DNA of 64,000 nt from an uncultured Verrucomicrobiaceae bacterium (GTDB lineage: Bacteria; Verrucomicrobiota; Verrucomicrobiia; Verrucomicrobiales; Verrucomicrobiaceae): the NCBI GenBank assembly GCA_942493005.1, contig OW818661.1, positions 2,791,060-2,855,059 of the forward strand. The letters run 5' to 3'. Shown here piece after piece: positions 21,401 through 42,511 of this stretch; position 1 is the first letter of the stretch, and the number at the start of each line of letters is the position of its first letter. The notes beneath the pieces were generated by a model, which was given only the letters and a program-made list of their open reading frames with translations, was not told where the DNA came from and searched no databases. The position numbers were made by a program, and so were the translations under genes.

Positions 21401-21495
21401 GGAATGGAAAAACGTTGGGGCTTGCCGCCGTGCGCGGCTGTCTCATACTGTGCCACACTCTGGCTTGCAATGGCAGCCCTGCCACGCCCCTTCGT

Positions 21496-24906: not shown

Positions 24907-26754
24907 TTACGCCCCAGGATTGAACGGACGAATGGCCAGGACCTTGATCTTGCGACCGGTACCTTCTTCAGTCGGGATGTCAGCCTCATCACCAGGAGCC
25001 ATGCCGATCAGCACCTTGGCAATGTCAGACAGATAAGAGACGATGTTGTGATCCAGATCGCCGTCCCAGGCACCCAGGATGGTATAGGTTTCATTTTCAC
25101 CCGTCGCGACATCCTGGAAATCCACCACCGTGCCGATGCCCACTTTATCAGCATTCACGTTGGCAAAGTCGGTACCACGGGAAAGGCTGATTTCGCGCTC
25201 CAGCTGGTCCTTCATGCGATTCAGCACCGCCTGCTGCTCACGAGCAGCCTTGTAACCACCATTTTCACGAAGGTCACCTTCGTCACGAGCGATCTGAATC
25301 TCGTTCTTGTTGTGCGGGATCTTGACGTTGGCCAGCTCATCCAGCTCGGCTTTTTTCTTCTCCAGGCTGTCCCAGGAGACGATAAGACGGTTGTCCTCAC
25401 GGGACTCGGCGTTTTCGTTCATCAGGGCTTCCATTTCTGGGCGGGCCTTGATCACACGCGCCAACAAGGAGCGGCGGGTCAGCTCATCCAGCACAGAGCT
25501 ATTGATGAGACGCTTGGCAAAGTTACGCAGGGACTCGTCATCCGTGTCCACCACCAGTTCATGGATCAGCGTCTTGTCATCGGAAAGCTGGTCGCTGAGG
25601 CGGCCAGTGCGCTTCGGCCCGCCCTGCACATGGTCATCTTCCACGGCGTCCAGGATGGCGTTACCCAGGTCGATGCTGAACACAGACTGGGCCAGGCCCT
25701 TACGCTCTTTGCAGATCCAGATCAGCAGATCCGCGCTCAGGGTGCGGTTACGGACGGATTTTTTGAGGAATTCAGACAGCACTTCCAATTCACCATTGGT
25801 ATCCAAAACCACGGCGATTTCAGCCACGGCACGACCACCGGTGCGAGTGAGGTGATTGAGGATTTCCGGCACCCAAACGCGCTCTGGGAACGCCTCAGGG
25901 AATGCACGATACATGCGGCCCAGCTGGCTGACGGGCAATCCACCGATGTTTTCGGCCAAAAGAGGACGTGCCTCACAAACAAGGTCCGCCACCTTCATCG
26001 AGCCCATCGGCGCCGAAGCACCTTCGATGGCATCAATCAGTTCATCGCGGGCCAAAAGCAGTTGCAGGCTGTCCTTGAGGTGCAGTTTCCAAGCCTTGCG
26101 CACGGTGTCAGAGATGTCCTGGAACACTGGCACCAGTTCCGTGCCGGGTTGCTCAAACAGGTCCAAATCTTTCTGGATCAGTGCCAGCACACCCAGCTTG
26201 CCCTTGAGATCGCGCTTGGCCAGAAAGTTCTGCACCATCACGCCACCGGGTTTTTCAGCACTGTCACGTAGCACCAGAGGTTCGGTGCGCTTAGAGGGCA
26301 CCACGATGTGACGCGCTGTTTTGAGGGTCTTTTTAGCCGATTCCCACCACTTCTTATACTCAGCCTCAGAGACGATGCGCGGCTTCAGCAGACGCTCCAG
26401 ATCATCCAGAGACATGGAACTGCCAGAGGATTTCAGCGCCAGCTCGATGAGTTCCGTCACCTTGCCCTTGGCCAGAGATTTCAAGCCATCGAGGTCCGAA
26501 TGACGGCGGGAAAGCAAATGCTCAGCAGGCAGGATTTCTAGGGATGTGATGGCGAAGGAAAGCTTCAGCCCGTGACCTGGTTTGCTTTCAAAATCCAGAA
26601 TGATGCGATCTCCGAGCAGATCCCATTCAGCGACCTTTCCCACACCCCAGCTTTTATGCAGGCAGAAGGTACCGGGTTCGAGTTTCGATAATTTTTCGCC
26701 GTCTGCGGCGGCGAGTTTGCCAGCCGCGACCAAGTTTTGGACCTCAGAATTCAT
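24907..26754 (-). CDS. greA: transcription elongation factor GreA, long form with ~450-aa N-terminal extension
   Basis: The C-terminal ~155 aa match GreA (ARDEGDLRENGGYKAAREQQ.., GIGTVVDF..TYTILGAWD). The N-terminus has a CarD/TRCF-like KSWGVGKV segment. Confidence 0.85.
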   Translation of the reverse strand: MNSEVQNLVAAGKLAAADGEKLSKLEPGTFCLHKSWGVGKVAEWDLLGDRIILDFESKPGHGLKLSFAITSLEILPAEHLLSRRHSDLDGLKSLAKGKVTELIELALKSSGSSMSLDDLERLLKPRIVSEAEYKKWWESAKKTLKTARHIVVPSKRTEPLVLRDSAEKPGGVMVQNFLAKRDLKGKLGVLALIQKDLDLFEQPGTELVPVFQDISDTVRKAWKLHLKDSLQLLLARDELIDAIEGASAPMGSMKVADLVCEARPLLAENIGGLPVSQLGRMYRAFPEAFPERVWVPEILNHLTRTGGRAVAEIAVVLDTNGELEVLSEFLKKSVRNRTLSADLLIWICKERKGLAQSVFSIDLGNAILDAVEDDHVQGGPKRTGRLSDQLSDDKTLIHELVVDTDDESLRNFAKRLINSSVLDELTRRSLLARVIKARPEMEALMNENAESREDNRLIVSWDSLEKKKAELDELANVKIPHNKNEIQIARDEGDLRENGGYKAAREQQAVLNRMKDQLEREISLSRGTDFANVNADKVGIGTVVDFQDVATGENETYTILGAWDGDLDHNIVSYLSDIAKVLIGMAPGDEADIPTEEGTGRKIKVLAIRPFNPGA

Positions 26755-27008
26755 GGGAGGGCGATGCTAGCGCGCTGAGGCTGTGTAGCAAAGGAAACCT
26801 TTGACGTTTGCTGTTAGGTAGCCTGGGAAAAGGGCCTCAGGTGGCTATAAATCTTCCTTTTTGGGGCCAAATGTTGGACTTCGCTGCCTCTTGTGCCGTT
26901 TTTTTCACGTTTTGCCCTTCCCTCAACGAGGCTGAATCTGTAGCCCGCAGCTTCTCCTACCCGAAGCCATCATCTTGCACAGCCAGCCTTCCCAGACGTA
27001 AATCAGGC

Positions 27009-28175
27009 ATGTCCCTTTTCCCCTCCGAAGACGCCCGCCTCGCTGAATTCCCCCTTGCTCGCGACAGCATCTTCCTGGCTCATGCAGGCGTCACCATCCT
27101 GCCCCGCCGAGTGACCAAGGTGATGCAGGATTACCTGGAGGAAAGCTGCCTGCGCATGCAGGAATTCCCCGAGGCCTGGCGCGCTGTGAATGAGACCCGG
27201 GTGGTAGCCGCCCAAATGATCGGGGCCAAGGCCAACGAAATATCCCTCCTCGGTCCCACCTCCCTGGGCCTCAGCCTCGTCGCCAATGGCCTGGACTGGC
27301 AGCCGGGGGATGAGGTGGTGTGTTACCAGGACGACTACCCTGCCAATGTGTATCCCTGGACGGACCTCGTCCGTCACGGCGTGGTGGTGCGGCTTCTAAA
27401 GCCTGAAACTCCCGGAGCGATCACTCCGGAATTGGTCGAGGCCATGCTCACCCCCAAGACCAAACTCGTGGCCCTCGCCTCTTGCCATTTCCTTAGTGGT
27501 TACCGCATCCAGATTGATGCTATTGGCCAGATGCTGCGGGCGCGCGGGGTGCTTTTTTGCCTGGATGCCATCCAGACCCTGGGGGCCTTTGAAACCCTGG
27601 TGGACTATGTGGATTTTCTCTCTGCCGATTCTCACAAATGGATGCTGGGTCCCATGGCAGCGGGGATCGTCTATGTGCGGGAAGAGGTACAGGAGCGACT
27701 GCGCCCCACTTTGCTAGGCTCTTGGAATGTGCAAAGCCCCAACTTCATCGCCCAGGACACCATCGCTTTTGAAAAAGGTGGCCGCCGTTACGAACCGGGC
27801 GTCCTCAATGTCGTGGGCATTCTCGGCATGAAAGCCGGGCTAGAACTGCTGCTGGAACACGGCATCCCTGCCGTCAGCGCCCAGCTCCTGCGCCTGAAAA
27901 CCCGGCTCGTGCAGCGCCTGGAGCCTCTCGGCTTCCGCTTTCTCGGCCCCGTCTCCGGGCCAAATGCCTCAGGAATCACCACAGCCTGGCGTCCCGAAGG
28001 CAGCGGCCCCAGCGCCGCGAAGATCTACGATCACCTCACCCGCCAAAAAATCAGCCCCTCGCTGCGTTTTGACCGCGCTGGCCAGCCTTACCTGCGCTTC
28101 AGCCCCCATTTTTACAACACGGAGGCAGAAATGGACCGCGTGGTGGATGCCATCGCCGACACACCTATGGACTAA
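27009..28175 (+). CDS. class V aminotransferase-fold PLP enzyme (cysteine desulfurase/IscS-like family)
   Basis: PLP-lysine context LSADSHKWMLGP. About 388 aa from ATG 27009. The longer TTG-type extension was rejected. Confidence 0.8.
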   Translation: MSLFPSEDARLAEFPLARDSIFLAHAGVTILPRRVTKVMQDYLEESCLRMQEFPEAWRAVNETRVVAAQMIGAKANEISLLGPTSLGLSLVANGLDWQPGDEVVCYQDDYPANVYPWTDLVRHGVVVRLLKPETPGAITPELVEAMLTPKTKLVALASCHFLSGYRIQIDAIGQMLRARGVLFCLDAIQTLGAFETLVDYVDFLSADSHKWMLGPMAAGIVYVREEVQERLRPTLLGSWNVQSPNFIAQDTIAFEKGGRRYEPGVLNVVGILGMKAGLELLLEHGIPAVSAQLLRLKTRLVQRLEPLGFRFLGPVSGPNASGITTAWRPEGSGPSAAKIYDHLTRQKISPSLRFDRAGQPYLRFSPHFYNTEAEMDRVVDAIADTPMD

Positions 28176-28275
28176 ACCAGCGCGCCTAGTTCCCGCTGAA
28201 AGGACCACCAACACGAAGCTCGACAGGGCAGCCACTCCTCGCATAGCCTAACCGGAAATTTAGAAATTCCGCGAT

Positions 28276-28869
28276 ATGGCCAAAAAAGCGCTGCTTAAAA
28301 AAAACGTGGTCGCAAAACCTACCGCCCGGAGCAAAAAGCCCGTTCCAGTCGCAAAAAAGAAATCTGCTGCCGCCAAGCCCACAGGGAAACCAGCCCCCAA
28401 GGCAGCTAAACCACCCGCTAAAGCCGCCCCAGAGCCCCTCCTCATGCCACCGACGCCCCCTGTGGCACCTCCCACCCCAGTCCCAGAACCGACTCTGGAA
28501 ATTGCAGCCTCTGGATTACCCAAAACCGTGCCGCTGACTGTCAGTGTCCAGACTTCTCAAGGCCTGGCAGCAAATGGCAATACCCATCCGGCCAATCTCT
28601 TGGTCATCGTCACCTGCGCAGGCTGGCCTGTGACGGAACTGGATAAAAACCACTTTACCCTCATGGAGCACTTTGAAGTGCCCGGACAAGTGGCTTCCTT
28701 CAGCAACAGCATCAGTTCCTTCCGCAATGCTGGCACGGGAGCTTACCTTTTGCAGACCAAACCCATCAACGGGGCCCCCTGGAAAACAGGTCATCACCTG
28801 GGCCAGCTCCTGGTCTCAAATTCCGAAGACCAGCAGGGACAGGCCGCTTTCAAGCTCATTGTGCGGTAA
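28276..28869 (+). CDS. hypothetical protein with histone-H1-like K/A/P-rich N-terminal tail and beta-rich C-terminal domain
   Basis: MAKKALLKKNVVAKPTARSKKPVPVAKKKSAAAKPTGKPAPKAAKPPAKAAPEP, followed by a Pro-rich linker and a ~115-aa globular region. Confidence 0.55.
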   Translation: MAKKALLKKNVVAKPTARSKKPVPVAKKKSAAAKPTGKPAPKAAKPPAKAAPEPLLMPPTPPVAPPTPVPEPTLEIAASGLPKTVPLTVSVQTSQGLAANGNTHPANLLVIVTCAGWPVTELDKNHFTLMEHFEVPGQVASFSNSISSFRNAGTGAYLLQTKPINGAPWKTGHHLGQLLVSNSEDQQGQAAFKLIVR

Positions 28870-28942
28870 AACTGCCCGAACCTTTGATTTTCAGCCCTGA
28901 GAAAATCGAAATCGTCCTTGCAATGTCACCGTGAGTTTTTAA

Positions 28943-28964
28943 TCTTCGTATGCTTGTGAAATTT
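28943..28964. promoter_or_regulatory. candidate CRP/FNR-family operator (TGTGA-N6-TCACA)
   Basis: Inverted repeat gcttgtgaaa-tt-tttcacaagc (two perfect 10-nt arms). The core tgtga (28946-28950) aatttt tcaca (28957-28961) is centred ~50 nt upstream of the actE ATG (29005). Confidence 0.5.
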
Positions 28965-29004
28965 TTCACAAGCTCAGATCAGGCGTCCCTCGCCAGCTCG
29001 TTCC

Positions 29005-29670
29005 ATGAAATATTTCTTCCTCAGCTACCTCTTTGTTGCCGCGATCGTCGTCGCTGCCTTTGGCACACGTGGCAGCAAGTCTGAATTGCCGCCCCTGGAA
29101 ATCTTCCAAGACATGGATCACCAGGCCAAAGTGAAGTACCAAGCCAAGAGTGACTTCTTTGCCGATGGCCTCGGTGCACGTCGCCCAGTCAAAGGCACGG
29201 TGCCTGTGGGTTTCGAGCTTCCAGCCAAGGCAGCCTCCTCCCCGGACTTCAAGCCACCTCACTACGGCTTCACCAACGGTCTCGACTATTACAACACGGG
29301 CAAAATCGGTGACTATTATGGCGACGGTCTCCCCCAGGAAGTGATGCTCAACAAGGCCCTCCTGGAGCGCGGCGAACGCCAGTACAACATTTATTGCGCC
29401 GTTTGTCATGGTGCTTCCGGAAACGGCAAAGGCATCACCTCGAAGTACGGCATCATGACCGCCTTTAACCTTCAGCAGAATGGCAGCACCGACCCCGCCA
29501 ATGCAGGCGCTTACCGCGCTGATGGAGCCATTTACGATGTGATCACGAACGGCAAAGGACTGATGGGCCCCTACGGCGGCAACATCACCGTTCAAGATCG
29601 CTGGGCCATTGTGGCCTACATCCGCGCCATGCAGGTGGCGGTGAAGGAAAACAACGTGTCCGTCCAGTAA
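29005..29670 (+). CDS. actE: alternative complex III monoheme cytochrome c subunit ActE-like
   Basis: N-terminal TM. FQDMDHQAKVKYQAKSDFFADG..RPVKGTVPVG pattern. Single CAVCHG heme site. C-terminal DRWAIVAYIRAMQ. Confidence 0.72.
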   Translation: MKYFFLSYLFVAAIVVAAFGTRGSKSELPPLEIFQDMDHQAKVKYQAKSDFFADGLGARRPVKGTVPVGFELPAKAASSPDFKPPHYGFTNGLDYYNTGKIGDYYGDGLPQEVMLNKALLERGERQYNIYCAVCHGASGNGKGITSKYGIMTAFNLQQNGSTDPANAGAYRADGAIYDVITNGKGLMGPYGGNITVQDRWAIVAYIRAMQVAVKENNVSVQ

Positions 29671-29688: not shown

Positions 29689-31065
29689 ATGAGTCACCAC
29701 GTCACATTCAACGACCTGCCCCCGGGCGGTGAGAAATTCGAACCCGCCAAAGGCGGCAAGCTCATCAGCGCCTTCGGTGCTGCAGGCGCGCTGGGCATCG
29801 CAGGCTCTGCCTACATGTTCTACGCAAAGCCAGATGTTTTTGCATATAGCTGGCTGTTCGCCTTCTTCTTTGCATTCACCTTCGTTTGCGGGGGCTGCTT
29901 CTGGATTCTTCTTCACAGTGCTTCCAACTCGGGTTGGGGTGTGGCCGTGCGTCGTCTCTGGGAGCAAATGGCCAACATGGTCCTGCCGCTTGTTTTCCTG
30001 GGCATTCCCCTCCTCTTCCCTCAGGTGCAGACGCATCTCTATGAGTGGATGAATCACCACCGCGAGGCCAAGACACAGTTGGTCGCTTCCGAGCACGCTG
30101 GCGCTGACAAACACGCTGAAACTGCTGCGGCACCTGCCCATGATGAAGGCGAAGAGCATCACGCTCCGCATACGATCAAAGAGCAGCTTCATCACAACTC
30201 CCTCAGCAATCCGCACCTCCACATCCTGGTCGAGAAGTATGGCTATCTGAACGTGGACGCTTGGTATTTCCGCTTCGCTTTCTACTTCTTCATCCTCTGG
30301 CACATCGCCCGGACGCTTCGCAAAAAGTCGGTCAAGCAGGATGAAGATGGTGACATCACTCACACCATCAAATCCCGCACCTTCTCCTGCCGCTGGCTCC
30401 TATTCTACGCCCTGACCGTCACCTTCGCGGCCGTGGATTGGCTGATGACCCTCGACTATTCTTGGTTCTCGACCATGTGGGGCGTTTATATCTTCGCCGG
30501 TTGCGCCTGGGCCTCCATGGCCCTCACAATCCTCCTCGTTACCTGGCTCAAGGGCCTCGGGTACATGAAGCAGGTCGTTACTGAGGAGCATTACCACCTC
30601 ATGGGTAAGCTGCTCTTCGCTTTCACGGTGTTCTGGGCTTACATCGCCTTCAGCCAGTATTTCCTGATCTGGTACGCCAACATCACGGAGGAAACTCGTT
30701 TCTACCTGACCCGTAACACCGAAGGCTGGCGCTGGGTGTCCATGTTCATCGTCGTGGGCCACTTCATCGGCCCGTTTGTCCTTCTCCTCTCCCAATCCCG
30801 CAAGAAGAACCCTGTCGCTGTCTGCTTGATCTGCCTTTGGATTCTCTTCATGCATCTGGTGGACATCTACTGGAACGTCATCCCTGAGCGCGGCCCTTCC
30901 CTCGGCCTCGGCTGGTGGGTGGACGGTGCTTGGGTCGGTGATGTGATCGCCTTGTTTGCCGTTGTCGGCACCATGGGCTTCATCTTCCTCCGCAGCCTTT
31001 CCCGTTACAGCCTCTATCCCTGCCGCGACCCGCGCCTTCTCGAGTCCGCCAACGTCATCAACTGA
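29689..31065 (+). CDS. actF: alternative complex III membrane subunit ActF-like (NrfD/PsrC-like)
   Basis: Polytopic protein. SGWGVAVRRLWE, VDWLMTLDYSWFSTMWGVYIF and FSQYFLIWYANITEE match the remembered ActF motifs (SIDPHWFSTLFGWY / FSQFMLIWYANIPEE). Confidence 0.72.
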   Translation: MSHHVTFNDLPPGGEKFEPAKGGKLISAFGAAGALGIAGSAYMFYAKPDVFAYSWLFAFFFAFTFVCGGCFWILLHSASNSGWGVAVRRLWEQMANMVLPLVFLGIPLLFPQVQTHLYEWMNHHREAKTQLVASEHAGADKHAETAAAPAHDEGEEHHAPHTIKEQLHHNSLSNPHLHILVEKYGYLNVDAWYFRFAFYFFILWHIARTLRKKSVKQDEDGDITHTIKSRTFSCRWLLFYALTVTFAAVDWLMTLDYSWFSTMWGVYIFAGCAWASMALTILLVTWLKGLGYMKQVVTEEHYHLMGKLLFAFTVFWAYIAFSQYFLIWYANITEETRFYLTRNTEGWRWVSMFIVVGHFIGPFVLLLSQSRKKNPVAVCLICLWILFMHLVDIYWNVIPERGPSLGLGWWVDGAWVGDVIALFAVVGTMGFIFLRSLSRYSLYPCRDPRLLESANVIN

Positions 31066-31073
31066 TTCTTTTC

Positions 31074-31457
31074 ATGTCTTCGACTGCTACCAATTCGAAA
31101 GCCGGAGCCACCTTTCTTTGGGTGCTTGGCGCATTCGCCAGCTTCGCCGTGCTGTTTTACGTAATTCAGGCCTCCTTTGCCACTCAGGGCGCTGAAGATC
31201 CACGTGCCCCAGAGCGTTTGGCCAACAAGGAAGAAATCCTCAAGGCTCAAAACGAACTCATCACCAAGATGGGCCTGAAAGACTCTGAGAAAAAAGCCGC
31301 CATCTTCGCTAAGACCCTTGAAACCCTGAAGGCCAAACCAGCCGGTGCCAGCACTCAGGTCGTCCCTGGTTCTCCTACTCAACTGAAACAGGCGGCCGCA
31401 CCGGCCCCAGCTGCTCCGGCTCCCGCCGCCCCTGCAGCGACTCCTCCTGCGAACTGA
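31074..31457 (+). CDS. small single-pass membrane protein with A/P-rich tail
   Basis: 127 aa. TM segment FLWVLGAFASFAVLFYVI. Tightly packed between actF and the CcoN-like gene. No family recognised. Confidence 0.5.
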   Translation: MSSTATNSKAGATFLWVLGAFASFAVLFYVIQASFATQGAEDPRAPERLANKEEILKAQNELITKMGLKDSEKKAAIFAKTLETLKAKPAGASTQVVPGSPTQLKQAAAPAPAAPAPAAPAATPPAN

Positions 31458-31478
31458 TCTTTTTTGCCCCTGGTACCT

Positions 31479-32957
31479 ATGCAGACCTCCCCAGCATCCA
31501 CGGACACCCTCACTGACAACATTCGCCGTGCGGCGATTGATAAGTCAGTGAAAGGCCCGGTGCTCTTCCTCTTCCTCAACGGCGCTTTCTGGCTGATGGC
31601 TTCCACCATCCTGGGCGTCCTTGCCGCCATCAAGCAGTTCGCTCCCGACTTCCTCGGCGCATGCAGCGTGCTCCAATACGGTCGCCTTCAGCCGACTCAC
31701 CTTAACGCACTCGTTTATGGATGGGGTGTTCAGGCAGGCCTGGGCGCCATGCTCTGGATCATGGCTCGTCGTTCCGGTCAGGAACTTCGCACAGGTAAAA
31801 GCGTCCTCTACGTGGCCGCCATCTTCTGGAACATCGCCGTCACCATCGGTCTGGTTGCCATCCTGCTGGGTAAAAGCACCTCCATGCAGTGGCTGGAAAT
31901 GCCCTCCTTCATCTGGCCAGTGCTGTTGATTAGCTTCCTCGCGTTCGCTTGGCCCATGGTGTTCATGTTTGGCCGCGCTTTCCGCCCTGAAGGTTTCATG
32001 GTCAGCACCTGGTATATCATCGGTGCCTGCTTCTGGTTCCCTTGGATTTTCGTGACCGCCAACGTCGCCCTTCATTGCCTTCCCGGCCTGGGTGCCCTGG
32101 GTGCTGGTATCAATGCTTGGTACGTTCACACGATGATCCTTCTGTTCTTCGCTCCTGTGGCGATCGGTGCAGCTTATTACTTCATCCCTAAAATCACCGG
32201 CCAACCCATCGCCAGCTCCCAGCTTTCTCAGATTGGTTTCTGGCTTCTGGCAGTTCTCGGAGGTTGGACGGGTATGCAGCATTACATGGGCGGTCCTCTT
32301 CCGGCCTGGATGCCAGCCATCGGCGCTGCTACGGGTGTTCTTCTTTTGATCCCTGTCGGTGTTGTCGGTCTGAATCATCACCTCACCACGCTGGGCAAGC
32401 ACAGCATGGTCGCCTCCAGCCCAACCCTGCGTTTCGTATTCTTTGGAGCTCTCTTTTACCCAGTGAGCGGAGCCATCCTGGCCCTGATCTCCAACTTCTC
32501 CACGGGTGCTGCCCTGCAGTTCACCCAGGCTTGGTATGGTTTCCAGATCGTTGCTGTCTATGGTTTCTTCAGCATGACCATCTTCGGGGCAATCTATTAC
32601 ATCGTTCCTCGCCTCACAGGTTGTGAATGGCTCTCGGTTCGCCTCATCCGCAATCACTTCTGGTTCTCGGTCTATGGTATCGGTGCCATCGTTGTGACCA
32701 GCTTCGTCGCGGGTGCCCAGCAAGGCGGCGACCTGAACTCCCCAGAAATGTGGGACCAGGATTTCATGCAGCTCACGCTGAACCTTCGCCCTTACATCAT
32801 CGCCCGCGCTATCGCTTGGGGCCTGATCACTTGGTCCAATGTTTGGTTCCTGATCCATCTCATGCTCATGGTTGCCGGTCTTGGCCGCCGCAGCTCTGCC
32901 CCGACGCTGCTTGAGCATGATCACGAAGAAGCCCTTCCCCACGCCGCCCACGCATGA
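31479..32957 (+). CDS. cbb3-type oxidase subunit I (CcoN)-like protein lacking several canonical metal-ligand histidines
   Basis: Collinear with FixN/CcoN (YGRLQPTHLNAL, NAWYVHT, AAYYFIPK, GLNHHLTTL, AIYYIVPR). However, the HH pair reads QH, and the helix-X HxH region reads AWYGFQIVAVYGF. ATG at 31479 (TTG at 31464 is possible). Confidence 0.8.
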   Translation: MQTSPASTDTLTDNIRRAAIDKSVKGPVLFLFLNGAFWLMASTILGVLAAIKQFAPDFLGACSVLQYGRLQPTHLNALVYGWGVQAGLGAMLWIMARRSGQELRTGKSVLYVAAIFWNIAVTIGLVAILLGKSTSMQWLEMPSFIWPVLLISFLAFAWPMVFMFGRAFRPEGFMVSTWYIIGACFWFPWIFVTANVALHCLPGLGALGAGINAWYVHTMILLFFAPVAIGAAYYFIPKITGQPIASSQLSQIGFWLLAVLGGWTGMQHYMGGPLPAWMPAIGAATGVLLLIPVGVVGLNHHLTTLGKHSMVASSPTLRFVFFGALFYPVSGAILALISNFSTGAALQFTQAWYGFQIVAVYGFFSMTIFGAIYYIVPRLTGCEWLSVRLIRNHFWFSVYGIGAIVVTSFVAGAQQGGDLNSPEMWDQDFMQLTLNLRPYIIARAIAWGLITWSNVWFLIHLMLMVAGLGRRSSAPTLLEHDHEEALPHAAHA

Positions 32958-33643
32958 GCCAGTTCCGCACCTTTATTCTCGCCCTCATCGCCAGCTTTGG
33001 TCTTCCTTGGCTGTGCCTGATCGTCGTCCCGGCCCTCAAGTATCAGGCCCTCACCCAAATCGCTTACGACAAGGATCGTGACGGTGTGGAAGGTCTGTAC
33101 CCGCCTGCCCCAATCAATCGCCAAGGCCAGTTGGTCTATGCTCGTGAAGGTTGCGTCCAGTGCCACACGCAGATGATCCGGCCAACGCAGCTTGCCCTCG
33201 ATGGCTGGCGCAAGGGCTGGGGCCAGGACCAGGAAGCCCGCCCGGCTGCCGCTATCCGCTCGAATAACCTTCGTGACTATCTGGGTGAGCCCTTCGCTTT
33301 CCTCGGTGTTCAGCGCAACGGTCCAGATCTCGCTAACTACGGTTGGCGTGCTCCAGAGCGCAGCAAGATCCACCAGATGCTGTTCGCTCCCCGGTCCCTT
33401 CACGACTGGTCCAACATGCCTTCCTTTGCTCACCTTTACACGGAACGCCTCGCCCAGGGTCAGCCTGCTGACAAAGCGCTGAAGCTGCCGAAGAAATTTG
33501 CCGTCAAAGAAGGTTATGAAGTGATCCCAACGCCTGAAGCTGAAGCCCTGGTGGATTACCTCCTCTCCCTCAAGAAAGATTACCCTGTTCCTGGCGAATC
33601 CGCCGCTGTCGCTGCAGCCCCTGCTGCTGCCGCCAAGAAATAA
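32954..33643 (+). CDS. ccoO: cbb3-type oxidase monoheme subunit II (CcoO/FixO)-like
   Basis: ATGA overlap with the preceding gene. N-terminal TM. VYAREGCVQCHTQMIRP heme site. GVQRNGPDLANYG and SNMPSFAHLY motifs. Confidence 0.8.
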   Translation: MSQFRTFILALIASFGLPWLCLIVVPALKYQALTQIAYDKDRDGVEGLYPPAPINRQGQLVYAREGCVQCHTQMIRPTQLALDGWRKGWGQDQEARPAAAIRSNNLRDYLGEPFAFLGVQRNGPDLANYGWRAPERSKIHQMLFAPRSLHDWSNMPSFAHLYTERLAQGQPADKALKLPKKFAVKEGYEVIPTPEAEALVDYLLSLKKDYPVPGESAAVAAAPAAAAKK

Positions 33644-33670: not shown

Positions 33671-34390
33671 ATGAGCGCTCCTTCCTCCTTCCCAAATCCC
33701 GACAGCAACGATCTGGACCGTCTTCACGCCGCTGTGAAGCGCGAAAAAGCCGATCTGGCCCCAGGCACCGAACCCGCACCAATGTGGGTCATCTTCCTGT
33801 TCATGATCGTCGCCATCATCGCCGGCGGCCAGCTTGGCCCGATGACCGGGGGTTACAGTTTTGATGTCAGCAACCCTTTCACGGCCTCCAAATCTGCGGA
33901 CCCTCGCGGTGATGACGGTGGTGGTGTGGCAGCTGCTGACCCTTTCCAGACCGCCATGAAAAAAGGTGCCAATGCTTACGCTGTATGCGGTGGTTGCCAT
34001 CAGGGCAACGGGGCAGGTCTCGCTGGACAGTATCCGCCACTTGCAGGTTCTGAGTGGGTTCTGGGAGGCACCGAGCGTCTGATCCGCGTGGTTCAACACG
34101 GTTTGATCGGTCAGGTCACGGTCAAAGGACAGAACTACAACTTCCCCGGCGGTATGCAGGCCTTCGGTGCTGGCATGTCCGCGACGGACCTCGCAAATGT
34201 GTTGACTTACATCCGCAATACTTGGGGTAACGAAGCTCCGATGATCACCAAAGAAATGGTCGAAAAAGTCCGTGCTGATGAAAAGCGCGCCACTCAGTGG
34301 ACTATGGCCGATCTGGAAGCTTTCAAAGATAAAAACGTCCCTGGAGACATCCCAGCAGGCCCGGGCGCCACAGCCCCTGCCGCTAAGTAA
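33671..34390 (+). CDS. membrane-anchored monoheme c-type cytochrome
   Basis: TM segment MWVIFLFMIVAIIAGG. Single CGGCHQGNGAG site. GGMQAFG..LANVLTYIRNTWGN, typical of class I cytochrome c. Confidence 0.8.
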   Translation: MSAPSSFPNPDSNDLDRLHAAVKREKADLAPGTEPAPMWVIFLFMIVAIIAGGQLGPMTGGYSFDVSNPFTASKSADPRGDDGGGVAAADPFQTAMKKGANAYAVCGGCHQGNGAGLAGQYPPLAGSEWVLGGTERLIRVVQHGLIGQVTVKGQNYNFPGGMQAFGAGMSATDLANVLTYIRNTWGNEAPMITKEMVEKVRADEKRATQWTMADLEAFKDKNVPGDIPAGPGATAPAAK

Positions 34391-34659: not shown

Positions 34660-36612
34660 ATGAGCGCCGCCGCCACCACCCACGATCACTCCCACGGAGC
34701 AGATCATGCGCATGACCACCACGAGCCGGGATTCTTCGGCAAGTATATCTTCTCCTGTGACCATAAGGTCATCGGTATCCAGTACGCACTCAGCGGTTTG
34801 CTTTTCCTGCTTCTGGGCTTCTTCCTCATGTTGCTCATGCGCTGGAGCATCGCCTTCCCTGGCCAGCCTGTCCCAGGATTGCTGTTTGTTGAGAGCCTCC
34901 CGATCCTAGGTCCGCTTTTCCATGAAACCATCGGTCGCTGGGCACCGGGCGGTATCGTCAATGGTGAACTCTACAACATGCTTGGTGCCATGCACGGCAC
35001 CATCATGGTGTTCCTCGGCATCGTGCCTCTCGGTTTCGCTGGTTTCGTCAATTTCGTCATGCCTCTTCAGATCGGCACGATTGATATGGCCTTCCCGAAA
35101 CTGAACATGTGGAGCTTCTGGCTTTTCTTCGTCAGCGGCGTCCTGATGATTTACAGCTTCTTCGTTGGCACGGGCCCTGTGCAGACGGGTTGGACAATGT
35201 ATTCCCCGCTCGCTTCCACCACTACTCTGGCCGTCACCAACGTCTGGGCTCACGGCCACACCTGGTGGCTCACCGCCATGGTGTTTAACATCTCCGCTTC
35301 CCTTCTGGGTTCGGTGAACGTGATCACCACCGTGATCAACCTCCGCGCCAAAGGCATGAGCTGGATGCGGATGCCGTTCTTCTGCTGGGCCATGTTCGTC
35401 ACCAGCTTCCTTCTCCTCTTGGCCTTCCCTCCACTGGAAGTGGCTGCTCTGCTTCAGCTTGTGGACCGTGTCTTCGGTTCCAGCTTTTTCCTTCCGACTG
35501 GCTTGATGGAAGGTGGTCAGCACCTCGACATCTCGGGTGGTGGTAGTCCGCTGCTTTACCAGCACCTGTTCTGGTTCCTCGCTCACCCTGAAGTGTACGT
35601 TTTGATTCTGCCTGCCTTCGCCATCCTTTCTGAAGTCATCCCGGCCAATACCCGCCGCCCGCTTTGGGGCTACAAGTCCATGGTCTATGCAGCCATGACC
35701 CTCGGCTTCCTCAGCTTCCTGGTTTGGGCTCACCACATGTATCTGACGGGCATGGGCACCATGATGTCCACCTACTTCCAGATCACCACGGTGCTGATCT
35801 CCGTGCCTTCTGTGATTCTTTTGACTGGTCTGATGATCTCTCTCTGGGGCGGCTCCATTCGTTTCACCCCACAGATGCTTTTCGCATCTGCCTTCCTGCC
35901 GATGTTTGGTATCGGTGGTCTGACGGGCCTGCCTTTGGCTTTCACCTTCATTGACCTTGCTCTTCACGATACCTACTACGTGATCGGTCACTTCCACTAC
36001 GTCGTGGCTCCGGGCACCATCTTCGCCCTCTTCGCCGGTGTCTATCATTGGTATCCGAAGATCACAGGCCGCATCATGAGCGACTTCTTGGGCAAGTTGC
36101 ACTTCTGGCCTTCCCTCGTCGGTATGAACCTCATCTTTGCTCCGATGTTCATTCAGGGCATGGGCGGCTTCCACCGCCGCTGGTATGACGGTGGCAAATA
36201 CTTCGAGCAGACCAGCAGTGCCTCCAACTGGGTGACCAAGCTGACTTCGGACTTCTTCGGCATCTTCGGCATGGACGTCCCCAACAACCTCCTCGGCCTG
36301 AACGTGCTGATGACCGTTGGCGCGACCATCCTCGCCCTGGGTCAGGTTCCATTCATCCTGAATGTCTTCCTCAGCATCAAAGGCGGTAAGAAGGCCAATA
36401 GCGATAACCCATGGCATTGCACCACCCTTGAGTGGGCGACTCCAACGCCACCTCCCCATGGCAACTTCACGTTTGAGCCGATCGTTACCCGTGGCCCTTA
36501 CGAATACAGCGTTCCTGGCTGCACCCAGGATTATCTCCCGCAGTGGGAAAGCGAGCCCGGCAAAGCTGCCACTGCTCCTGCTTCCACACCCGCCCCGGTT
36601 GCTCATCATTGA
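34660..36612 (+). CDS. ctaD: aa3-type cytochrome c oxidase subunit I
   Basis: FSCDHKVIGIQY, WFLAHPEVYVLILPAF, WAHHMYLTGMG and VIGHFHYVVAPG, so all six canonical His positions are present. His-rich N-terminus THDHSHGADHAHDHH. Confidence 0.95.
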   Translation: MSAAATTHDHSHGADHAHDHHEPGFFGKYIFSCDHKVIGIQYALSGLLFLLLGFFLMLLMRWSIAFPGQPVPGLLFVESLPILGPLFHETIGRWAPGGIVNGELYNMLGAMHGTIMVFLGIVPLGFAGFVNFVMPLQIGTIDMAFPKLNMWSFWLFFVSGVLMIYSFFVGTGPVQTGWTMYSPLASTTTLAVTNVWAHGHTWWLTAMVFNISASLLGSVNVITTVINLRAKGMSWMRMPFFCWAMFVTSFLLLLAFPPLEVAALLQLVDRVFGSSFFLPTGLMEGGQHLDISGGGSPLLYQHLFWFLAHPEVYVLILPAFAILSEVIPANTRRPLWGYKSMVYAAMTLGFLSFLVWAHHMYLTGMGTMMSTYFQITTVLISVPSVILLTGLMISLWGGSIRFTPQMLFASAFLPMFGIGGLTGLPLAFTFIDLALHDTYYVIGHFHYVVAPGTIFALFAGVYHWYPKITGRIMSDFLGKLHFWPSLVGMNLIFAPMFIQGMGGFHRRWYDGGKYFEQTSSASNWVTKLTSDFFGIFGMDVPNNLLGLNVLMTVGATILALGQVPFILNVFLSIKGGKKANSDNPWHCTTLEWATPTPPPHGNFTFEPIVTRGPYEYSVPGCTQDYLPQWESEPGKAATAPASTPAPVAHH

Positions 36613-36658: not shown

Positions 36659-38071
36659 ATGGACATCCCCTATACCGTAACCGCCCGTCCTGACACGGGC
36701 CTCTACAATGCCAAAGTCGGCATTTGGCTCTTCCTCGCTTCTGAGGTGATGCTTTTCGGCGGCCTTTTCTCCTCCTACATCTTCCTGCGGGTAGGAGCAG
36801 ACTATCACTGGCCTGTTCACGAACTGAACGTTATGATGGGATTCATCAACACCTTGGTGCTGATCTTTTCCTCTGTGACAGTTTTGCTCGCCTGGGCTAA
36901 CTTGAAGCTGCGCAACATTGGCAAGTTCAAGATGTATCTGGCCATCACGATCCTTTGCGCCATGGCCTTCATGGTCATTAAGGGTTTTGAATACAACTCC
37001 AAATTCAATCACTACGCTGTCAAACTGACGGATGGCACCTTCCTCACCGGTCATTTGGACGAAGGTTATGAGATCAAGTTTGGCGAGGCCAAAGAATTTA
37101 CCCTTACCATCACGGGTGAGAACAAAGCCATTGATGCAGATCCTGCAGGTTACGTGGTTCCGTTTGTGGATGGTGACCTTCCAGCCTTCAAGTTGGATTC
37201 CGGTGAAGAATTTTCCTTGGAAGCCTCAGCTTTCAAAGCCTTCCGCAAAAAGACCGTCGCTGCCGCCAAGGAAACCCTGGAAAAGCGCCGCCAGGAACTG
37301 CGTGATCAAGGTAAAACTGATAAAGCTCGCGAACTGAACATCATTCCTGACACGACGATCAAGATCGTCGCTAGCCAGCCTGTGAAGTTCAAGGTCAAGC
37401 CTTCCAAGCTTCTCGGTTATTCGGGAGAGACCATCACCTTCGCCGACGGCACGACTGCCAAAGGCAAGCTGCTTGACGACAAGATGACTCTCACTGTGGA
37501 TGGCGTGGATACTCGCTCCGTTCCCGACGCTGAGAAGTCCCTCGCCTGGAGCAGCCAGTATCTCGGAGAAGGTTGGAAAAAGACCTTCATTGCCAAACGC
37601 GACGACGCCCAGGCTGAGTTCAAGAAAGACTATCCGAACCGTGATCCTCAGAAGAGCGCCACTCACCAGAAAGAAGCTTTTTATCTGCACATCCATTCTG
37701 CCACACCACCCGCTGAAAGTGCCCATGGCGACGGTCATGCAGCCGAAGCCGCGGCTGAACACGGTGAATCTCATGACGCTCATGCGGCCCACGGTCCAAA
37801 AGTGGTCCTGGAAAAGAAAGACATCGCTTTCTACTCCAACTACACGCCGAAACTGAACACTTACTACGCCATCTACTTCACCCTCACAGGTCTTCACGGT
37901 CTGCACGTGGTGGCAGGTGCCCTGGTGCTGACTTACTTCCTTTTGTTCGACGGCAAAATGCTTCGTAACGACCCTGAGCGCCTTGCGAACCGCGTGGAAG
38001 TCGGCGGCCTGTTCTGGCACTTTGTGGACTTGGTGTGGATCTTCCTGTTCCCACTGCTTTATCTCCTGTAA
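36659..38071 (+). CDS. ctaE: cytochrome c oxidase subunit III with ~285-aa hydrophilic insertion
   Basis: N-terminal helices (GIWLFLASEVMLFGGLFSSY, ..VIKGFEY) and C-terminal LTGLHGLHVVAG..GLFWHFVDLVWIFLFPLLY. These are separated by a long soluble segment covering residues ~113-400. Confidence 0.9.
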   Translation: MDIPYTVTARPDTGLYNAKVGIWLFLASEVMLFGGLFSSYIFLRVGADYHWPVHELNVMMGFINTLVLIFSSVTVLLAWANLKLRNIGKFKMYLAITILCAMAFMVIKGFEYNSKFNHYAVKLTDGTFLTGHLDEGYEIKFGEAKEFTLTITGENKAIDADPAGYVVPFVDGDLPAFKLDSGEEFSLEASAFKAFRKKTVAAAKETLEKRRQELRDQGKTDKARELNIIPDTTIKIVASQPVKFKVKPSKLLGYSGETITFADGTTAKGKLLDDKMTLTVDGVDTRSVPDAEKSLAWSSQYLGEGWKKTFIAKRDDAQAEFKKDYPNRDPQKSATHQKEAFYLHIHSATPPAESAHGDGHAAEAAAEHGESHDAHAAHGPKVVLEKKDIAFYSNYTPKLNTYYAIYFTLTGLHGLHVVAGALVLTYFLLFDGKMLRNDPERLANRVEVGGLFWHFVDLVWIFLFPLLYLL

Positions 38072-38110: not shown

Positions 38111-38437
38111 ATGGCCGACAGTCCTGAAGAAATCCACAAGTCGATCAAGAAGATCCTCATCGTCGGGGGTCTCCTCGCGGCGCTCACTGCCGCTACCGTG
38201 GGTCTTTCCTATGTGGAATTGCCCACCCACAGCATGAACATTCTGGCGGGTATGATCTTGGCAGCTTTCAAGGCAGGCCTTGTCGCCCTGATCTTCATGC
38301 ACTTGAATCATGAAAGCCCGCTGATTTATAAAATCTTGGCTTTCACAGGAGCCTTCGCCATCGCGTTGTTCTTTTTGTTCGTATTCTCTGCCAGCGATCC
38401 GTTGGTCTTCCACGGCTTTTACGACAGCAACAATTGA
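38111..38437 (+). CDS. ctaF: cytochrome c oxidase subunit IV (prokaryotic COX4 family)
   Basis: 108 aa with three TM segments. KKILIVGGLLAALTAATVG..AFKAGLVALIFMHL pattern. Confidence 0.72.
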   Translation: MADSPEEIHKSIKKILIVGGLLAALTAATVGLSYVELPTHSMNILAGMILAAFKAGLVALIFMHLNHESPLIYKILAFTGAFAIALFFLFVFSASDPLVFHGFYDSNN

Positions 38438-38452: not shown

Positions 38453-38659
38453 ATGTCACTCAAGCACTTCCACATTGTCTTTCTCTTTTTCGCCATTCTC
38501 GGTGACCTGGGTTTTTGGCTGTGGACACGTATGCTCCCTGAGCAGGCGGCTTCTTTGGGTGTGACTGGTCTGGGTGCTTTTGCTGGCTGGCTCAGTCTTG
38601 TGATGACGGCCTATGGCATCTGGTATGTGGTGAAAAAGAGCCGCACCATCATTGTCTGA
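38453..38659 (+). CDS. small two-TM membrane protein
   Basis: 68 aa. HIVFLFFAILGDLGFWLW and LGAFAGWLSLVMTAYGIWYVV. ATG start, sited between oxidase genes. Confidence 0.45.
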   Translation: MSLKHFHIVFLFFAILGDLGFWLWTRMLPEQAASLGVTGLGAFAGWLSLVMTAYGIWYVVKKSRTIIV

Positions 38660-38680: not shown

Positions 38681-38872
38681 ATGAACGCTTTTCTTTTCCA
38701 GCTTGCCTGCGCCACCTGCCGCCCGGATCCGGGCAGCGTTATGGCTCAGGCCCAGGACTTAGCCGTTTTGGTGATGCTAGGTTTCCTCGCCCTCGGCATG
38801 GGTGCCGTGGGTTTGATTTTCTTTAACTTTGTCCGCAAACAAAACCGTCTCCCCGCTGACGCGCAGTTTTAA
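38681..38872 (+). CDS. small single-TM protein with N-terminal CxxC
   Basis: 63 aa. LACATCRPDPG, then TM LAVLVMLGFLALGMGAVGLIFFNF. Located directly upstream of the subunit II gene. Confidence 0.45.
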   Translation: MNAFLFQLACATCRPDPGSVMAQAQDLAVLVMLGFLALGMGAVGLIFFNFVRKQNRLPADAQF

Positions 38873-38893: not shown

Positions 38894-39691
38894 ATGAGCG
38901 TCTCTGACATCAATACCTGGATTGGCATCACCCAAAACGCCTCTGAGCATGGCGGTCTTGTGGATCACATGCTCGGCTTCGTCCACTGGTTCATGCTGGC
39001 CCTGTTCATCGGCTGGTCCATCTTCCTCACGATCGCCTTCACGCGTTTCCGCAAGTCGAAAAATCCCTCGGCGGATTACCATGGTGTTCGCGGCCATGCC
39101 TCCACCCATATCGAAATCGGCGTGGTCGTGGTAGAAGCTATTCTTCTCTTGGGTTTCGCCTTCCCTCTCTGGTCCCGCCAGGCTGATGACTTCCCAACCA
39201 GCCCCGACACCATCAAGATCCGCGCCCTGGGCGAGAAGTTCCTCTGGAACTTCCAGTATCCAGGCAATGACATGATGCTGAGCACCTGGAGCATGAAGGG
39301 CATCACCCCATCAAACGTCACCGGTCGCGACCTCATGGACCCTAACGGCAAGGATGACTTTGTCAGCCCTAGCACCATGAAACTCCCTGTCGGCCGCCCT
39401 GTCATCGTGGACGTCAGTAGCAAGGATGTGATCCATAACCTGGCCCTTGTGCCCATGCGTTCCGCCCAGGATGCCATTCCAGGTGTCAAAGCCCACATGT
39501 GGTTCAAGCCTGTAAAGGAAGGAACCTGGGACATCATCTGCGGTCAGCTTTGCGGCCCGGGTCATGCTCAGATGCGTGCCGTTTTGGAAGTCATGGATGG
39601 CAAAGAATATGACGAATGGGCCAAGGAGCAGTCCGCGAGCGCTGCCGCCAAGTCTGCTGCCTCCACTGCGCCCGTGACCGCGGCTAAGTAA
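38894..39691 (+). CDS. ctaC: cytochrome c oxidase subunit II (CuA, no fused cytochrome c domain)
   Basis: Two N-terminal TM segments. Cupredoxin motifs SKDVIHNLALVPMR and ICGQLCGPGHAQM. Confidence 0.9.
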   Translation: MSVSDINTWIGITQNASEHGGLVDHMLGFVHWFMLALFIGWSIFLTIAFTRFRKSKNPSADYHGVRGHASTHIEIGVVVVEAILLLGFAFPLWSRQADDFPTSPDTIKIRALGEKFLWNFQYPGNDMMLSTWSMKGITPSNVTGRDLMDPNGKDDFVSPSTMKLPVGRPVIVDVSSKDVIHNLALVPMRSAQDAIPGVKAHMWFKPVKEGTWDIICGQLCGPGHAQMRAVLEVMDGKEYDEWAKEQSASAAAKSAASTAPVTAAK

Positions 39692-39777: not shown

Positions 39778-40806
39778 ATGATCTGGACCCGCTTTCAAAA
39801 ACTCGCGCTCATCGCTTTCATCACTGTCGAAGTGTTGATCTTTGTCGGCGCAGTGGTGCGGGCCACGGGTTCTGGCCTGGGCTGTCCGGATTGGCCCAAA
39901 TGCTACGGCTGCTGGGTCCCACCAACCAGCGCGGAGGACATTGATTTCAGCCAACTGAAGATCGAAAAATTCCGCGCCAAGGCCGCCGCCCATGGACGTG
40001 ATCCAGCGACGATCACGCCTGAAACGATCAAAGCGGAGTTCGACGCTACGGCGACCTGGATCGAATACTTTAACCGCCTCACCAGCATCCCTGTCGGCAT
40101 TGCCACCATCGCTCTGTTCATCGCCGCGTTTGGTGAATACCGTAAAGGGCGGACTCGTGTTTTCCTTGCTGCGATAGCTTCAGTTTTGTTGGTGGGGATC
40201 AATGCCTGGCTTGGGGCCAAAGTAGTCTTCAGTGCACTGAAACCTGGAACCATCACAGTGCACATGGCTTTAGCTATCCTATTGCAATGTGTCCTGGTCT
40301 ACACCGCCTGGAGTGCTAATGATCAGCCGTGGAAACTTTCTTGGAAACAACACGTCCACAACGGTTTACGCTGGATCGCCTGGATTCTGTTCGGTCTCAT
40401 CGCCATTGAAGGCGTTCTGGGCTCCCAAGTTCGCCAATTAACGGATATGCTGGCTCAGACCCACGCCGGGCATCCGCGTAGCGAATGGGTAACAGAGCTG
40501 GAGCAGAGCTGGGTTTACCTCCTTCACCGCAGTTTCTCTTGGCTCATCCTCTTCGCCGGAGCCGCTTTTTTACACCTTAGCCGCCGTCACCTCACCCGCG
40601 CTGGTTGGCTGGAATGGAGCGTCTTTGGCCTGATCTTTAGCCAAATGATCCTGGGTGTGGTCTTGGCCCATGTCGGGATTGTGGGCATCGCTCAAGTGTT
40701 GCACATCGGTCTGTCCTCTTTGCTAGTCAGCGCCCTGTTCCTTTGGCTGCTGGGCTCCACTGGAAAGGTCATCAGTGTTTCTGGCGAAACGTCACCAGCG
40801 CGTTAA
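39778..40806 (+). CDS. ctaA: heme A synthase (COX15/CtaA)
   Basis: VRATGSGLGCPDWPKCYGCW motif, a multi-TM layout, and conserved His residues in the helices. Confidence 0.85.
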   Translation: MIWTRFQKLALIAFITVEVLIFVGAVVRATGSGLGCPDWPKCYGCWVPPTSAEDIDFSQLKIEKFRAKAAAHGRDPATITPETIKAEFDATATWIEYFNRLTSIPVGIATIALFIAAFGEYRKGRTRVFLAAIASVLLVGINAWLGAKVVFSALKPGTITVHMALAILLQCVLVYTAWSANDQPWKLSWKQHVHNGLRWIAWILFGLIAIEGVLGSQVRQLTDMLAQTHAGHPRSEWVTELEQSWVYLLHRSFSWLILFAGAAFLHLSRRHLTRAGWLEWSVFGLIFSQMILGVVLAHVGIVGIAQVLHIGLSSLLVSALFLWLLGSTGKVISVSGETSPAR

Positions 40807-41763: not shown

Positions 41764-41806
41764 TGAAACCAGCTGCCACAAAACCCAACCCGCCTAATTT
41801 TTGACT

Positions 41807-42511
41807 ATGTCCCAGCCCCTTTCGGATCCCAAACCTTCCCTCACCCCCTGGGCCATCTGGATTCCTGTCATCATCGCCGTACTCGGTGTGGTTGTGTTTT
41901 ACAATTACCTCATCGCTATGCAGCAGCAGGCCAAGAGTGAAGATAAAAACCGCCCCGCCATCCTGGGCCGTTTAGAGCGAGATCTGGTGCTGACTGAGCG
42001 CGATGGCCGCAAGGTTCACCTGGACGAATTACGCGGTAAGGTGCTGTTGACCTCTTGGGTTTACACCCGCTGCCCACGTGGTTGCGCGGGAGTCATCGCC
42101 AAGCTGAAGAAGCTTCAGGAAGAGTACAAGAATAACCCGAACGTTCACTTCATCTCCTTCACTCTGGACCCTGAAGACACCCCGGAAATGATGCAGAAAT
42201 TTGCCAGGGGTATCAATGTGCAGGATACTGACCCGTGGTGGTTTGTGAACGGGGCGAAAGATGAAGTGCGCAACTACATGACCCAGTTCATGAAATTCCG
42301 TCCGGTGCAGGATCTGCCGGAAGCGGATCGCCTGTCTCCGGATGACAAATACATCCACGACCTGCGTGTGGCCTTGGTGGATCACAAAGGTCACGTGCGT
42401 GGCACTCAATACGATCTCATGAATGCCGATCCTCAGTTTGGCGATTACTTTGAAGCTCAACTTCGCAAAGATCTGGACTTCGTGCTCAAAGAAAAGGAAC
42501 AGGGCAAATAA
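41807..42511 (+). CDS. SCO1/SenC-family copper chaperone
   Basis: TM anchor. Thioredoxin-like LLTSWVYTRCPRGCAG (CxxxC) and a downstream His (LVDHKGHVRG). ATG at 41807. Confidence 0.8.
   Translation: MSQPLSDPKPSLTPWAIWIPVIIAVLGVVVFYNYLIAMQQQAKSEDKNRPAILGRLERDLVLTERDGRKVHLDELRGKVLLTSWVYTRCPRGCAGVIAKLKKLQEEYKNNPNVHFISFTLDPEDTPEMMQKFARGINVQDTDPWWFVNGAKDEVRNYMTQFMKFRPVQDLPEADRLSPDDKYIHDLRVALVDHKGHVRGTQYDLMNADPQFGDYFEAQLRKDLDFVLKEKEQGK

Follow-up and report, generated by a model that had tools for sequence, protein, structure and literature searches.

A CcoN-like protein family lacking heme and copper ligands in the gene neighborhood of alternative complex III

We describe a gene in a 64,000-nucleotide stretch of DNA (the window) from an uncultured Verrucomicrobiaceae bacterium (GenBank assembly GCA_942493005.1, contig OW818661.1, positions 2,791,060 to 2,855,059). 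The gene, at 31479..32957 on the plus strand, encodes a homolog of CcoN, subunit I of cytochrome c oxidases belonging to the cbb3 type, that is missing ligands of both hemes and of CuB. We put a probability of about 60% on the reading that this protein is a non-catalytic CcoN scaffold that anchors two c-type hemes and forms an electron-output module of alternative complex III (ACIII), having descended, with its redox function dead, from the catalytic subunit of a cbb3 oxidase coupled to ACIII. An earlier note, made from the letters alone, had already taken the product for a retained, probably non-catalytic scaffold carrying a c-type cytochrome. The family-wide loss of ligands, the selection acting on the gene, the predicted fold, the retention of CxxCH motifs in the partner subunits and the loss of ccoS all agree with that view.

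The assignment to CcoN is supported by sequence and predicted structure alike. Read from the ATG at 31479, the open reading frame (ORF) encodes 492 amino acids (aa), or 497 aa if read from an in-frame TTG at 31464, and its translation is uninterrupted over the full length. Almost the whole of the Pfam COX1 model is matched (positions 3-432 of 436; E = 3.8e-46), and the closest solved structures found by phmmer are cbb3 CcoN chains (P. stutzeri 3mk7_A, E = 2e-26), in line with the collinearity with FixN/CcoN claimed in the earlier note, whose motifs (NAWYVHT, AAYYFIPK, GLNHHLTTL, AIYYIVPR and GWTGMQHYMGG) are each found in the translated ORF. Scored against the TIGR00780 ccoN model, the protein reaches 122.2 bits, below the curated equivalog cut-off of 583.15. 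An AlphaFold2 model built on a 114-sequence alignment has a mean predicted local distance difference test score (pLDDT) of 91.8 and a predicted template modeling (TM) score of 0.92, and its best Foldseek matches are all CcoN chains (TM-score 0.85-0.91), with NorB (0.74-0.84) and the A- and B-family oxidases behind. The protein thus has CcoN homology and the 12-helix transmembrane fold of subunit I, and both the profile comparisons and the structural superposition that had been suggested with the original observation point the same way. Membership in NorB, which requires three histidines and a glutamate for FeB and two sets of heme ligands, is not indicated, as the same ligand columns are vacant. 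Among PDB chains, phmmer and Foldseek matched the protein only to true cbb3, nitric oxide reductase (NOR) or oxidase subunits.

We mapped the ligands of P. stutzeri CcoN (3mk7_A) onto the window protein by phmmer alignment, using the 492-aa numbering. Three of the six ligand histidines are kept: H60 of heme b corresponds to H74, and the CuB ligands H207 and H258 correspond to H217 and H268. The other three are replaced, the CuB ligand H257 by Q267, the proximal ligand of high-spin heme b3 (H345) by F355 and the second ligand of low-spin heme b (H347) by I357, and the cross-linked tyrosine of helix VII (Y251) is replaced by G261. Consequently, neither the bis-histidine pair of the low-spin heme, nor the proximal histidine of the high-spin heme, nor the CuB triad, nor the active-site tyrosine is complete. 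Phmmer, MAFFT and hhalign place the ligands identically; hhalign against 39 ligand-complete relatives gave a probability of 100% over 473 aligned columns at 38% identity, and the Foldseek fold match agrees with the mapping. Because the three alignment methods coincide, the manual alignment behind the earlier note was not shifted, and an alignment artefact that would hide histidines in all six columns is ruled out. Both of its specific readings were accurate: the helix VII pair is QH in place of HH, and the axial ligands of helix X are gone. Likewise, the 497-aa form contains no histidine at residues 314-397, its histidines lying at 79, 204, 222, 273, 305, 306, 313 and from 398 onward. An internal control is provided 1.7 kb downstream by CoxA, an A-family (aa3-type) subunit I encoded at 34660..36612 (+), which retains all six histidines (Pfam COX1, 1.6e-125; motifs HG..., HPEVY, HHMY and HFHY in alignment with 1m56_A). 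With the ligand of the high-spin heme and the tyrosine gone, O2 reduction by the CcoN-like protein is excluded. Judged by its residues, the protein is unable to hold a heme b3-CuB center, and hemes b and b3 and copper are probably all missing from it.

These substitutions are not peculiar to the window. A protein search returned hundreds of homologs, from which we compiled 119 full-length orthologs at 55-99% identity to the window protein and aligned them with MAFFT. The H60 column is histidine in every ortholog, the H257 column is glutamine in 115, the H345 column is tyrosine or phenylalanine in 115, the H347 column is isoleucine, leucine or valine in 113, and the Y251 column is glycine, alanine or serine in all 119. 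The two remaining CuB columns vary, between H, S and N for H207 and between R, K and H for H258; since the H207 column is itself not kept as histidine, the loss of ligands is more complete than the window protein alone would show. Further positions of P. stutzeri CcoN that we take to belong to its calcium/propionate site and proton channel have changed as well: R57Q, H337Q and H243G occur in 114-118 of the 119 orthologs, the S240 column is alanine in 100 (serine still in the window), and the E323 column has become aliphatic, mostly isoleucine or valine.

At the same time, the gene is under clear purifying selection. Its pairwise ratio of nonsynonymous to synonymous substitution rates (dN/dS), computed over about 70 orthologs, is 0.12, compared with 0.11 for CoxA, 0.13 for the CcoO-like partner and 0.16 for ActF, values that are approximate because dS exceeds 1. 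The orthologs align end to end with the window protein, and more than 100 share both its length and its substitutions. Strain-specific decay and a frameshift are thereby ruled out, and no sign was seen of the assembly error at 32.3-32.7 kb that would have undermined the observation. The contention that the gene is not decaying is thus borne out by the comparison with orthologs that had been proposed for it: the ligand columns are non-histidine or variable across the set, under a constraint equal to that on CoxA. Taken with the structural model, this suggests a protein whose fold is intact and constrained and from which the cofactor ligands alone have disappeared.

To place these orthologs within a wider family, we scanned 1.84 billion cluster representatives with HMMER and obtained 1774 matches, 312 of them at E<=1e-30. 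The best 150 matches include 126 full-length proteins (30-46% identity); only four of these have the complete HHYHHHH set, and about 120 are without most or all six ligands, with no conserved replacement. Every ligand column is variable at this depth, including the equivalent of H74. No residue is conserved solely in the ligand-less clade at the level of the broad family, almost all conserved columns being common to true CcoN, and no new polar or metal-binding signature was found in the columns of this clade. In some subclades (patterns HGGQxYM and HSAQKYM), histidine at the H60 column is combined with methionine at that of H347. Where source labels are present they read Prosthecobacter, Brevifollis, Luteolibacter, Verrucomicrobiales or Verrucomicrobiae, all Verrucomicrobiota, apart from one metagenome-assembled genome (MAG) labelled Armatimonadetes; one soil-metagenome entry carries no taxon. 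The window itself is 99% identical to one Verrucomicrobiota MAG contig, and its closest relatives are labelled Prosthecobacter. Whenever a database name assigns a function, it is "cbb3-type cytochrome c oxidase subunit I"; other entries are named "hypothetical protein" or bear a generic domain label. Similarly, in a paper on signature proteins of the Planctomycetes-Verrucomicrobia-Chlamydiae (PVC) group, the protein of Verrucomicrobia is taken to be just subunit 1 of cbb3 (PMC3444138). A search of full-text literature, within which neither the C-family tree of Muntyan et al. 2015 with its "unknown group" nor Refojo et al. 2010 could be reached, returned no description of a ligand-less CcoN, in line with the earlier statement that no such class was known. 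The family is thus large, apparently verrucomicrobial and apparently undescribed.

The genomic context of the family is highly regular. Directly upstream of the CcoN-like gene in the window, and co-directional with it, lie the ACIII genes actE (29005..29670, +; PDB 6f0k_E, 7.6e-26; Pfam Cytochrome_CBB3 and Cytochrom_C) and actF (29689..31065, +), the latter encoding the NrfD-like membrane subunit (PDB 6f0k_F, 1.1e-57, and also 8k9e_F, 6lod_F and 6btm_F). Between actF and the CcoN-like gene, a small membrane protein of 127 aa with an N-terminal helix and a Pro/Ala-rich tail (31074..31457, +) has no match in Pfam, NCBIfam or PDB; ligand-less and ligand-complete loci alike have a gene for a product of 97-158 aa at this place. 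The CcoN-like gene overlaps by ATGA (32954-32957) a gene for a CcoO-like monoheme cytochrome c (32954..33643, +; Pfam FixO, 1.4e-17; PDB 3mk7_B, 1.2e-12), in which CVQCH and the Met-ligand region are intact, exactly as had been noted from the sequence. A third subunit follows, a monoheme c552-type cytochrome c (33671..34390, +; Pfam Cytochrom_C) whose PDB matches, at 1e-19 to 1e-18, are the cytochrome c domain of copper nitrite reductase and Thermus c552. Its cytochrome c domain spans residues 95-210 and is preceded by an extension, about 95 residues long, that is probably a membrane anchor.

More than 40 genome loci have kept this gene order, with actE directly upstream. Every locus with enough flanking sequence reads actABCDEF (or actEF), small membrane protein, CcoN-like, CcoO-like, c552-like cytochrome; the full actABCDEF string is present upstream in L030-L076, L082, L085, L086, L088, L089 and metagenomic loci. 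Relatives at <=78% identity have actABCD directly upstream (for example, L031 1278-7499), and in the subclade of the window the ACIII operon is split. What lies downstream of this core varies. An aa3 operon follows in the window, in L081 and in 40+ loci; in L088 (13234-21096) the ligand-less module is directly followed by a complete and genuine cbb3 operon, which comprises a ccoNO fusion, ccoP, ccoG and a gene for a P-type ATPase; and unrelated genes, with no oxidase nearby, follow in L089 and L092. Because the downstream oxidase may be aa3, cbb3 or none, the constant partner of the module is ACIII and not one particular oxidase. The idea that the module is a part of the aa3 oxidase is ruled out by the same variability. 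The placement of the gene between ACIII subunits and an aa3 oxidase, made in the earlier note, therefore holds for the window, where ActE and ActF are upstream and aa3 downstream, and fails as a rule for aa3 across the family. L088 is also of interest in itself: in this one metagenomic genome, a single enzyme family is represented behind ACIII by a dead copy and, next to it, a live one.

The heme-binding capacity of the partners has been retained throughout. Exactly one CxxCH is present in 100 of 100 complete CcoO-like genes adjoining ligand-incomplete N subunits, and in 93 of 93 such third-subunit genes. Moreover, three natural fusions (P0227, P0259 and P0266) join a ligand-less N domain to a FixO domain, each with one CxxCH, which argues that the CcoN-like and CcoO-like proteins may still form a complex.

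Comparison with ligand-complete relatives suggests how this state may have arisen. The closest of them share the ACIII context and carry fixS/ccoS just upstream; thus, the locus of the ligand-complete P0125 (L085) reads actA-F, a small transmembrane protein, fixS, ccoN, ccoO, a cytochrome c gene and a P-type ATPase. The c552-like ortholog follows CcoO in ligand-complete loci too, and a P-type ATPase gene comes next in L085 and in a small number of metagenomic loci (L103, L149). Ligand-complete copies also occur in two MAGs, one from Methylacidiphilales (P0364) and one from Puniceicoccaceae (P0289). Counting those metagenomic loci, taken from a metagenome scan with a 10-sequence alignment, in which the sequence extends 700 bp or more upstream, we found ccoS upstream of 27 of 35 ligand-complete genes versus none of 15 ligand-incomplete ones (Fisher p = 2e-7). 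The linkage of ACIII to cbb3 as such is not new: verrucomicrobial methanotrophs and Opitutaceae have it (Schmitz et al. 2021, PMC8498564, citing Refojo et al. 2010), with which the complete copies in the two MAGs agree.

In a neighbor-joining tree of 242 sequences, built without support values, the ligand-complete clades form a basal grade and about 200 ligand-less sequences form a single crown, with one long-branch exception. Two proteins appear to be evolutionary intermediates. P0128 (L086 5791-7251), which shares the ACIII context, has kept H60, H345, H347 and H207, has Q-Y at the CuB histidine pair and has alanine at the tyrosine position. In P0312, H257Q is the sole difference from the complete ligand set. 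As P0128 is sister to the single ligand-less crown, the tree suggests a single origin, in which CuB was lost before the hemes.

In the scenario that we favor, an ancestor that survives in other Verrucomicrobiota would have carried actABCDEF, ccoS, ccoN, ccoO and the gene of the c552-like third subunit, in this order. One lineage would then have lost the CuB/tyrosine site and subsequently the heme ligands, with ccoS disappearing alongside, and the 12-helix CcoN-like protein would have been kept as a membrane scaffold for two partner subunits that each bind one c-type heme. This trio and the small membrane protein most likely stay on ACIII as its output module, which would extend the heme wire of ACIII by two c-hemes and pass electrons to whichever terminal oxidase the cell has. 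For the window, the acceptor would be the aa3 oxidase encoded directly downstream. That enzyme needs a donor, since its CoxB subunit, in which CuA is present, has no fused cytochrome c domain.

Several points weigh against this scenario. Physical attachment of the module to ACIII, its contact with aa3, and the direction and partners of electron transfer are deduced from gene linkage, and for the window even the link to a complete ACIII comes by way of its relatives, because actABCD is not adjacent in this subclade. The absence of cofactors is read from the sequence, and the order of losses from a tree that lacks support values. The constraint on the gene equals that on a catalytic subunit, beyond what a passive anchor would be expected to show, albeit by the approximate dN/dS given above. 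Finally, not one of the 119 close orthologs departs from histidine at H74, a conservation for which a pure scaffold would have no need.

The last two points are also what recommends the most obvious competing explanation, that the protein is still a redox protein, binding a heme through H74 or a metal through H217, H268 and H301 or a conserved glutamine, and performing some unknown catalysis or a transmembrane electron relay. A five-coordinate heme b on H74 would be possible, H217 and H268 are both kept in the window, and the subclades with HGGQxYM or HSAQKYM could pair histidine with methionine, a ligation proposed for the low-spin heme of nNOR (PMC11214002). In the window, however, the methionine position is isoleucine, as it is I/L/V in orthologs; H217 and H268 give way to S/N and R/K in other orthologs; and across the wider family all ligand columns vary with no conserved substitute. 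The loss of ccoS, together with that of the high-spin heme ligand and the tyrosine, likewise speaks against a redox function, which we regard as unlikely. As a source of new ligands, the NHH motif (H300/H301) is ruled out, because it is also present in ligand-complete relatives. The simplest failure, an artefact from a decaying pseudogene, a frameshift, a misassembly or a shifted alignment, has a negligible chance of being correct: we found no evidence in its support, and it conflicts with an uninterrupted ORF, more than 100 orthologs, a dN/dS of 0.12, the agreement of three alignment methods and a confident fold.

Alternatively, the protein might conduct ions or protons, driven conformationally by ACIII in the manner of the cofactor-less NrfD-like ActF or of the antiporter-like subunits of complex I. 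The positions that we presume to form the proton path are mostly apolar or small in orthologs (alanine at S240 in the 100 noted above, with serine in the window; glycine at H243; I/V at E323), and no polar intramembrane residue is specific to the ligand-less clade, whose conserved columns are common to true CcoN. Despite the high constraint on a membrane protein and the permanent linkage to ACIII, whose own membrane subunits are cofactor-free (PMC5928083), we consider such a function very improbable. Still harder to credit is a role in assembly or maturation of the neighboring oxidase, for example as a platform for handing over heme or copper. It would fit the co-directional string of aa3 structural genes with ctaA, ctaB and sco1 in the window, but L089 and L092 have no oxidase nearby, the module in L088 adjoins a cbb3 operon that brings ccoG and ccoI of its own, and the constant neighbors are ACIII and two c-type cytochromes. 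A bolder version of the scaffold also deserves mention, although we hold it to be a long shot: a heme-copper oxidase (HCO) subunit I without any redox cofactor might have become a permanent ACIII subunit that bridges an obligate supercomplex of ACIII, pseudo-cbb3 and terminal oxidase, possibly with a proton path that is driven by conformational change and increases the H+/e- yield of ACIII.

The aa3 operon that follows the module in the window is complete in its main subunits. Downstream of coxA come an enlarged subunit III, CoxC (36659..38071, +; 470 aa, COX3 homology at both ends), the prokaryotic subunit IV (38111..38437, +; Pfam COX4_pro, 5e-13) and subunit II, CoxB (38894..39691, +; PDB 1ar1_B, 9e-24), whose alignment shows a complete CuA site with the histidine and the CGQLCGPGHAQM motif. 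In CoxC, COX3 homology is confined to residues 18-118 and about 393-470, with an insertion or fusion of some 270 residues between them, and this size is conserved in relatives. The gap between coxIV and coxB holds two small hydrophobic ORFs (38453..38659, 68 aa, and 38681..38872, 63 aa; both +), matched in L081 by genes of 65 and 74 aa at the same position, and these may be unannotated small oxidase subunits. The string continues with ctaA (39778-40806, +; Pfam COX15-CtaA), ctaB (40819-41763, +; Pfam UbiA) and sco1 (41801-42511, +; Pfam SCO1-SenC). In L031 (12921-13724) and 50 other loci, a 267-aa cupredoxin of the plastocyanin/azurin family is encoded between the c552-like gene and coxA; it is missing from the window, where this gap measures only 270 bp.

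Within the 64-kb window no actABCD, ccoS, ccoG or ccoP was found, and the only match related to cco genes, at 59895-62132, encodes a P-type ATPase of generic type that is 23% identical to CcoI. In the subclade of the window, the region before actE and actF (26808-29005 in the window) codes, in place of actABCD, for an aminotransferase and for a Lys/Pro/Ala-rich protein of 197 aa without a family match (28276-28869). Three other proteins encoded in the window are of note: one of 1058 aa that combines DUF7133 and HEAT repeats with a cytochrome c domain at its C-terminus (46935-50111, -), a 615-aa protein with GreA/GreB domains in its last ~160 residues behind a long uncharacterized N-terminal extension (24907-26754, -), and a caspase-domain (Peptidase_C14/CHAT) protein fused to TPR repeats (21415-22848, +).

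These results bear on how oxidase genes are read from genomes. Active-site histidines have been taken as conserved in all HCO families except gNOR (PMC11214002); the present family contradicts this assumption and would add a large redox-dead branch to the superfamily. It also predicts a form of ACIII, so far undescribed, that has as many as four additional subunits. Claims of a high-affinity or microaerobic oxidase made from genomes are probably wrong for those Verrucomicrobiota lineages that carry only the ligand-less form; a check of the six ligand columns, or of the presence of ccoS, separates real from dead copies. The family may further offer a natural example of how, step by step, a catalytic membrane subunit becomes a scaffold and the partners that carry its electrons are retained. 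Were the bridging supercomplex real, it would contain the first "pseudo-oxidase" subunit in a respiratory chain, with an origin traceable from CuB first to the hemes later and with ccoS lost alongside.

Among known systems, the nearest is the cbb3 oxidase itself. The window protein shares with CcoN/FixN of P. stutzeri (3MK7) full-length homology, the 12-helix fold and a CcoO partner with one c-heme encoded directly downstream; it differs in the replacement of H257, H345, H347 and Tyr251, in scoring below the TIGR00780 cut-off and in the missing ccoS. The ACIII-cbb3 clusters of verrucomicrobial methanotrophs and Opitutaceae have the same gene order and contain the closest sequence relatives (38% identity, profile to profile), but their CcoN is ligand-complete and accompanied by ccoS, both of which the ligand-less family has lost, an aa3 oxidase following in Verrucomicrobiaceae. 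Divergent HCO families, gNOR among them, also have an altered active site without the cross-linked tyrosine (Murali et al. 2024, PMC11214002); gNOR, however, swaps one CuB histidine for aspartate, whereas the ligand-less family has lost heme ligands too and would have no catalytic site.

Within ACIII, a functional analogy is offered by ActF and ActC, cofactor-free membrane subunits in a complex of recruited modules, where hemes and iron-sulfur clusters reside in the peripheral subunits (PMC5928083). A cofactor-free HCO subunit holding c-type cytochromes would repeat this design, although ActF and ActC are unrelated to the CcoN-like protein in sequence and fold, and the association of the latter with ACIII is presumed from gene linkage. 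The solved ACIII structures (6f0k, 6btm, 6lod and 8k9e) come from organisms without the CcoN-like module. Relays of the proposed kind do have precedents: in the ACIII-aa3 supercomplex of Flavobacterium johnsoniae the relay heme is an extra cytochrome c domain on ActA, and in ACIII-caa3 of Rhodothermus marinus it is the c domain of subunit II (PMC5928083). Both build a c-heme relay to an A-family oxidase into the complex, which is the role proposed here; in the family described in this study, the relay hemes would instead sit on former cbb3 subunits, held in place by a dead catalytic subunit.

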